From: Candidatus Algichlamydia australiensis
GTDB taxonomy: Bacteria; Chlamydiota; Chlamydiia; Chlamydiales; JAJFMI01
Assembly (NCBI GenBank): GCA_033977065.1
Contig: JAXCHI010000007.1
Coordinates: 1-20,692, forward strand
DNA length: 20,692 nucleotides
Reading direction: 5' to 3'
Positions 1,835 through 2,368 of this stretch are shown piece after piece. The translations under genes were made by a program, and so were the position numbers. The notes under the pieces were generated by a model. It was not told the DNA's origin. It saw nothing but the letters and a program-made list of their open reading frames with translations, and ran no database searches. How positions within the stretch are numbered: position 1 is the first letter of the stretch; every line of letters begins with the position of its first letter.

Positions 1835-2368
1835 ATGCCTCACCTATTTCTAGAATATACAGAAAACATCCAAGAAACGCCTGACTTTCCCAAGCTCTTT
1901 GATCGTTGTCATGAGCATCTTGCTCAAATTGCAGATGCTGATCCAAAAAGCTGTAAAAGTCGAGTTTTTAAAGAAGATGTCTATCATATCGGTTCTGGTG
2001 ATCCAAAAAGTGCTTTTATCCATCTCTGTGTTTATATGGCAAATGGCAGAACACCTCAGGTTAAAAAAGAGCTAGTAATCCGTAACAGAAAATTTTGCTA
2101 TTCTTTTTAACGTGAAAGCTCTCGCGATTGAGCTATCGCAACTCACCTAGTATTAATCAAATACGAGGTGATTTTCGATAGTTCAATCCCGAGGCTTTGA
2201 CGTAAAAATAATGCTAAAATTTTCTGTTATGGAGTACTAGGTACTACCCTGCTCAACCTTTTGAAAGAAGAATTTGCATTGGCAATAGAGAAGTTCGATT
2301 TGCAGATTACCGTATCTGTTGAAGAATTTGATAAGAATTTCTATTTCAAGTTTCCTGGCTCTGTATAA
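1835..2368 (+). pseudogene. 5-carboxymethyl-2-hydroxymuconate isomerase (CHMI)-family tautomerase gene interrupted by a 165-bp insertion
   Basis: N-terminus MPHLFLEYTEN...CKSR...FIHL...GRT.Q.KKEL is typical of the CHMI family. Removing 2076-2240 restores a 122-aa ORF that continues GTTLLNLLKEEFALAIEKFDLQITVSVEEFDKNFYFKFPGSV* (TAA 2366-2368). The ORF track's 91-aa product ends at a stop inside the insertion. Confidence 0.8.
2072..2240. mobile_element. Palindromic MITE-like element with CTAG (or TA) target duplication
   Basis: CTAG at 2072-2075 and 2237-2240. Left arm 2072-2154 (CTAGTAATCCGTAACAGAAAATTTT...TCACCTAGTATT) is an imperfect reverse complement of right arm 2160-2240 (AATACGAGGTGA...AAAATTTTCTGTTATGGAGTACTAG), with a 5-nt loop AATCA. 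Confidence 0.85.

Follow-up and report, generated by a model that had tools for sequence, protein, structure and literature searches.

Correia elements (CREE/NEMIS) of Neisseria are non-coding hairpins of about 100–160 bp that have inverted ends, duplicate TA and occur in many copies; they lie in or beside genes and are found without a partner transposase in the genome. Stowaway-type MITEs of plants, which belong with Tc1/mariner, likewise duplicate TA and are the source of the MIR1120/1122 hairpins. TA is also the target duplicated by the IS630 family; IS630 itself reportedly prefers CTAG. In Rickettsia, palindromic elements (RPE) keep the reading frame open, and the proteins that carry them are extended by a stretch of peptide.

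Here we describe a chlamydial element found in a window of 20,692 nt (the whole stretch of DNA analysed) from Candidatus Algichlamydia australiensis, on contig C7 of a 1.80-Mb genome (G000; 7 contigs, 93.4% complete). The insert in the window is a MITE, i.e. a non-autonomous DNA transposon, and its architecture appears closest to that of Correia elements and Stowaway-type MITEs. It resembles the former in its size, its single hairpin, its presumed TA duplication, the presence of copies in and near genes and the lack of a resident transposase; it differs in that the centre of the chlamydial element is conserved across families while the ends change, and in that a partner IS can be named in one genome (G136). 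No sequence likeness between the two was found or would be expected. Like Stowaway-type MITEs, it has TA flanks and folds from end to end into a hairpin, and the lengths are similar. The Rfam MIR1120 model aligned end to end with the core of other copies of the same family (family A, see below) at 43.9 bits, which is half of its gathering score of 86 and comes mostly from pairing, and we claim no homology; the window’s own copy gave no match to this model at E values up to 1. No family of Rfam 15 reached its gathering score, the best in the window being FuFi-1 with 17 bits. As with RPE, we are dealing with palindromic repeats in frame within protein genes of an obligate intracellular bacterium, but the chlamydial element has stops in all six frames and truncates the protein; with stops in every frame of the consensus, such elements would not be tolerable as in-frame peptide inserts. 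IS630-family insertion sequences and their MITEs duplicate TA, as is presumed for this element, and the ends of the G136 MITE equal the end of a DDE_3 element, but the chlamydial elements of the IS630 clade that we examined are about 930 bp long, with short terminal repeats and no core.

The insert occupies positions 2072–2240, 169 nt including the CTAG at each end, and is a near-perfect palindrome that adds exactly 165 nt, or 55 codons, to a CHMI-family gene. Folded as single-stranded DNA it forms one hairpin with a 5-nt loop (2155–2159) and an energy of −53.8 kcal/mol, compared with −12.8 ± 2.6 kcal/mol for 200 shuffles, none of which folded as well (z = −16); the corresponding RNA folds at −85.4 kcal/mol (z = −17.6). 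Both comparisons place the hairpin far beyond chance. Its 38-nt arms are 84% complementary, and pairing extends over the whole element. The 163-bp element proper has no coding capacity, each of the six frames of the family consensus containing two stops or more.

The N-terminal 80 residues of the interrupted gene match the Pfam CHMI family PF02962 (5-carboxymethyl-2-hydroxymuconate isomerase family; E 1.4e-14, profile positions 1–78 of 124). The genus has just one further genome, G001 (76% complete), and there an intact orthologue of 123 residues (locus L046) adjoins the same membrane-protein gene. Alignment of the two genes at the DNA level shows one internal gap of exactly 165 nt, and at the insertion point G001 reads GAG TTA GGT where the window reads GAG CTA[insert]GGT. 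The 3’ part aligns without gaps to the end of the orthologue, and neither half contains a further frameshift or stop relative to it. The frame from the ATG at 1835 to 2368 is open apart from three stops, all of them within the insert, and translation would end 11 codons into the element; near the right end of the insert the sole ATG, at 2229, lies in another frame that is closed by a stop at once. These results bear out what the first-pass annotation had read from the letters of the window, namely a palindromic hairpin with a 5-nt loop, bounded by CTAG and adding 55 codons, with in-frame stops TAA, TGA and TGA, placed between two undamaged gene halves from which the empty site could be reconstructed. 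Both halves show no further decay yet. At the same time, the stops alone point to a loss of function, and the gene is most likely dead, so that what looks like an annotatable CHMI-family gene would be a recent pseudogene. Directly upstream lies an ORF of 110 residues (1459–1791) that is weakly similar to the N-terminus of the broken gene (40% over 43 residues, E 1.8e-5), starts with MLE and not MPH, and has no Pfam match; it may be a decayed tandem paralogue. Coordinates of these and other features are collected in Table 1.

Table 1. Features of the interrupted gene and its insert (positions in the window) and related arrangements elsewhere in the same genome
Feature	Position	Strand	Remarks
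CHMI-family gene, 5’ part	1835..2074	+	80 codons, starts MPH...; Pfam PF02962; 56% identical to the G001 orthologue
Left TA of presumed target duplication	2073..2074	.	Within CTAG 2072–2075
MITE left arm (terminal inverted repeat)	2075..2109	+	Inverted repeat; ends common to the 14 full copies and family B
In-frame stop 1, TAA	2108..2110	+	Truncated product would be 91 residues
Conserved central core	2110..2202	+	Covariance model R1, 93.6 bits; 20/37 pairs covary
In-frame stop 2, TGA	2129..2131	+	Frame reading
In-frame stop 3, TGA	2198..2200	+	Frame reading
MITE right arm (terminal inverted repeat)	2203..2237	+	Inverted repeat, fold, copies
Right TA of presumed target duplication	2238..2239	.	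Within CTAG 2237–2240; empty site in G001
CHMI-family gene, 3’ part	2240..2368	+	Codons GTT...GSV, then stop; in frame with the 5’ part
A-B-A composite	L002:931-1669 = G000:C4:453326-454064		
A-B-A composites, further	G000 C4:389697-390437; C2:110118-110858		
Split thiamin pyrophosphokinase gene	L003:1315-2613 = G000:C4:487153-488451		Pieces match TPK_catalytic (twice) and TPK_B1_binding

The window’s element belongs to a family, which we call A, that is present in G000 in 14 full copies of exactly 169 nt each and in 3 partial ones, spread over four contigs. CTAG is found on both sides of 13 of the 14 full copies, the remaining one having CCAG on the left. The full copies have a mean pairwise identity of 97.3%, and their majority consensus is identical to one of them. 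Of the 14, the window’s copy has diverged most; its six differences include one compensatory pair in the arms. The earlier suggestion of a recently active element therefore fits the family, one member of which equals the consensus, better than it fits this particular copy. A lack of other copies, or of an empty site in orthologues, would have spoken against mobility; other copies exist and G001 has the empty site, and the view of the insert as a mobile, non-autonomous element is upheld on both counts. A possible uncatalogued chlamydial family had been proposed as well, and relatives were indeed found across the phylum (see below).

A second family in G000, B, is about 410 nt long, with 11 full copies that are each 93.7–100% identical to the reference copy; it shares sequence with family A at both ends, over about 55 nt on one side and about 27 nt on the other. 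A copies often adjoin B copies through a shared CTAG, giving rise to A-B-A composites in which two 169-nt copies surround one B of about 410 nt, each joint being a shared CTAG. The elements thus appear to re-use the CTAG recreated by their own insertion. The thiamin pyrophosphokinase gene of the same genome has been cut in three by one A and one B copy. With the CHMI-family gene, the symbiont has lost at least two genes to these elements, which makes a mechanism of gene loss visible in an obligate intracellular bacterium. A contig from run X3 (another study, organism A) carries the window’s element (2072–2236) with 95–99% likeness and joins back on itself by 165 nt, as two copies in tandem would; the family therefore exists beyond this sample. 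A distant-mode search of a plasmid collection gave no match to the element. We also noted that contig C1 (87 kb) and contig C3 have about 4.4 kb in common, with an identity of at least 85% (G000:C1:47691-52141 and G000:C3:12246-16654).

The empty site is compatible with duplication of either 2 bp (TA) or 4 bp (CTAG). Old copies in G000 are flanked by GTAG..CTAG and ATAG..CTAA, a relative in G001 by TTAG..CTAT, and related elements in other genomes have TA directly at both ends. Since older copies and relatives retain TA while the outer bases vary, we favour duplication of TA within CTAG over a 4-bp duplication. No autonomous element with family-A ends was found in G000, where the end motifs pair only at spacings of 169 nt and about 410 nt. 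No match to DDE_3 (IS630-type) was found in this 93.4% complete assembly, and tblastn of G000 with eight chlamydial IS630 transposases gave no match either. A metagenome scan with the end motif returned four loci, none with a transposase. Two of the four (L051:2355-2522 and L052:2355-2522, on contigs of about 35% G+C) hold a hairpin-type MITE of about 165 nt with family-A-like ends (the terminal 12–17 nt are nearly as in family A) and a different interior. An unrelated IS903-like element, which makes a 9-bp duplication, is present twice in G000.

A candidate partner was found in another genome, G136, which contains a multi-copy IS630-family (DDE_3) element that terminates many contigs. Five of its copies (L104 and L143–L146) share one terminus type, ending about 23 nt after the stop codon, and the same type is seen with an 89%-identical transposase relative in G109. 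Two copies at contig ends (L141 and L142), on the other hand, end in the MITE’s own arm terminus: BLAST gives 91–92% over 35–37 nt, and in a count by eye they agree with it at 28 and 27 of 29 bases, a stretch including the last codon and stop of the transposase. In G136 at least, the arms are therefore IS630-family ends, while the core is absent from that IS. By this comparison, the interior of the MITE is not a deleted copy of the G136 element, and the family looks modular, with a conserved core and swappable ends. The two kinds of element are also nested in G136: the loop of one core-bearing MITE carries, at a TA, an IS630-family element (L104:725-833), and a MITE lies within a decayed copy of the IS630-family transposase gene (L113:1-141), indicating that both were moving at TA sites there. 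G136:C30 was considered as an autonomous element with half-cores and rejected; it is an IS630 copy at TA in a MITE loop, and four other copies of that IS end without a core. The first-pass annotation had left IS630- and IS5-type mobilisation side by side. No transposase with these ends is found in G000, and the G136 subfamily has IS630-family ends; for family A in G000, IS630-type mobilisation is the likelier reading.

An IS5-family transposase of the IS427/IS1031 group, targeting YTAR/CTAG, could have moved the same kind of element here instead. We consider this unlikely on balance, but it is a live rival, since G000 holds a broken IS5-family element at CTAG (DUF4096 + DDE_Tnp_1; L021:1358-2290, C2 at about 415 kb). 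One end of this remnant abuts CTAG and equals the ends of a third, itself CTAG-flanked, MITE family; a further hairpin, about 172 nt long, breaks the 3’ end of the remnant. Family-A ends are unlike those of the remnant, as compared by eye, which argues against it as the source. The lack of a DDE_3 gene in G000 fits the IS5-type reading, as does a similar IS in G136 that duplicates TA within TTAG. In G015, moreover, core-bearing elements have 3-bp flanks, TTA or TAA, and ends beginning GGAAG, and such 3-bp flanks and GGAAG-type ends are habitual for IS5-type elements. Against this stand the sole demonstrated match between arms and an IS in the superfamily, which is to an IS630-family element, and a hand tally that places PF13586 in only 10 of the 41 core-bearing genomes. 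Readings in which the gene was never lost fare worse. Misplacement of a repeat into the gene during assembly would be suggested by the short-read contigs of runs X1 and X2, which break within the repeat. However, in both runs (which may be the same sample as the source of the genome) contigs pass from unique gene sequence into the element on either side, covering 1700–2111 and 2200–2600 in X1 and 1700–2103 and 2200–2600 in X2 with no letter different, and the window’s copy has private differences from every other copy, so that an artefact is next to inconceivable.

That the gene stays functional, because the insert is precisely excised in some of the population, processed out of the RNA or hopped over by ribosomes from one CTA codon to the other, as had also been speculated, is only slightly more credible. 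The insert is in frame between undamaged halves, with matched CTA codons on both sides and a very stable RNA hairpin, and in this it is like T4 gene 60 and the mitochondrial ‘byp’ inserts, where a hairpin insert lies in the coding frame between matched codons. Target duplication alone yields matched codons, however, and the unit length of 161–165 nt across related subfamilies makes the multiple of three a matter of chance, not something maintained. To our knowledge, translational bypasses have gaps of about 50 nt and require a stop right after the take-off codon. Here a GTA codon, and no stop, follows the first CTA, the gap of 165 nt is about three times longer than any of these, the element has stops in all frames, and we see no evidence of read-across. 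None of the contigs examined joins across the empty site, as far as assembled contigs, which do not reach rare alleles, can tell, and among sequencing runs recorded as RNA none contained the locus. The idea of a bypass thus finds no support.

Taken as a whole, the locus is very probably explained by a 163-bp MITE, composed of arms and core as modules, that was pasted at a TA by a transposase supplied in trans and turned the CHMI-family gene into a pseudogene. A DDE transposase would have cut TA inside a CTAG of the gene, and pasting of the element would have duplicated this TA, the element and one TA together making up the 165 bp; with translation ending 11 codons into non-coding sequence, a CHMI-family pseudogene would result. 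The outer arms of about 35 nt would represent the terminal repeats of the transposase, variable between lineages, and the core of 91–93 nt would be the part conserved over many chlamydial families and absent from the sole partner IS identified.

The core was delimited by comparison with other genomes of the order, in which element nt 38–131 alone gave matches, with several copies in each genome; these matches lie in hairpins of similar total length but with quite different outer arms. An alignment of 26 cores from six genomes served as the basis of covariance model R1. RNAalifold on these 26 cores gave 37 paired columns, with changes on both sides in 20 of the 37 pairs, while all 26 cores have one and the same T.G pair. 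Pairing is found in 96.9% of the cells compared with 85.1% in shuffles, none of 500 shuffles reached any of five measures, and pairing falls to 39–50% when partners are slid by one column. The core is asymmetric, in that its halves do not mirror each other; every lineage has a bulged T as well as G.G, C.C and T.G oppositions, and in most elements, also in genomes outside the model, one strand scores 20–38 bits above the other. We also came across symmetrised cores, in which both halves have the ‘left’ box or both have the ‘right’ one (G103:C1:1641953-1642040 and G103:C1:563637-563721), and such copies suggest hairpin-templated conversion.

Of 150 sampled Chlamydiota genomes scored with R1 (one further genome went unscored), 41 contain the core, representing 31 of 90 genera; copy numbers per genome are lower bounds, at most 28 candidates having been scored in each. 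With the same model, the core was found in none of 26 genomes of one small-genome family (1.0–1.3 Mb). Twelve genomes outside the model again have it in hairpins of 163–167 nt, mostly flanked by TA on either side, and a single genome may contain several types of arm. Strict pattern searches for an autonomous element with half-cores at its ends in five near-complete genomes returned only paired or symmetrised cores. DDE_3 is present in 19 of the 41 core-bearing genomes and in 27 of the 109 others, by a hand tally in which relatives are not independent and drafts lose ISs. Conversely, 22 of the 41, G000 included, have no DDE_3, and 19 have neither DDE_3 nor PF13586. Phyletically, the core is thus only weakly tied to either transposase family, and presence of a transposase explains little.

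While the knock-out of a small gene by a MITE is an ordinary, well-documented event, the MITE superfamily itself is undescribed and widespread in chlamydiae. Full-text literature searches for MITEs in Chlamydiota found no description, and the text available to us of the genome paper, which counts 11 transposases, makes no mention of them (PMC11317633). A repeat family present in about one third of the sampled genera breaks short-read assemblies, marks lineages and may mislead gene callers. It also offers a natural experiment on the role of a conserved, covarying hairpin within a transposon.

What the core does is a matter for more tentative proposals. It might be a functional structured module, under purifying selection in environmental chlamydiae, that rides on lineage-specific ends fitting the local transposase, a reading to which we give well under even chances. 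If true, this would be a ‘core-first’ MITE superfamily, with conserved cargo and exchanged ends (TA in most genomes, TTA/TAA in G015, CTAG in G000), contrary to the usual pattern. The core could then act in cis on transposition, by folding the ends together or binding a conserved architectural protein, or else serve as a DNA or RNA signal on neighbouring genes. Alternatively, the pairing could have been kept by hairpin-templated repair of a DNA palindrome, without selection, but some mismatches are themselves conserved, an argument for sequence-based retention of at least the two outer boxes. Among 65 distinct cores, mismatches of the G.T type number 119 and those of the A.C type 16, or 62 and 16 when the invariant T.G pair is excluded, which hints at selection on one folded strand, although the copies are related and the count is no test.

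A promoter role was dropped after a consensus scan showed no promoter-like site inside the window’s element; read by eye towards the loop, the core halves have −35-like and −10-like hexamers in several lineages. A terminator role was rejected because T-runs precede, and do not follow, the hairpin on both strands. In a rough, ORF-based count of 42 elements, orientation with respect to neighbouring ORFs was unbiased (in tandem settings, 10 in the same and 12 in the opposite direction); 12 elements lay between convergent ORFs and five between divergent ones, divergent intergenic regions being under-used.
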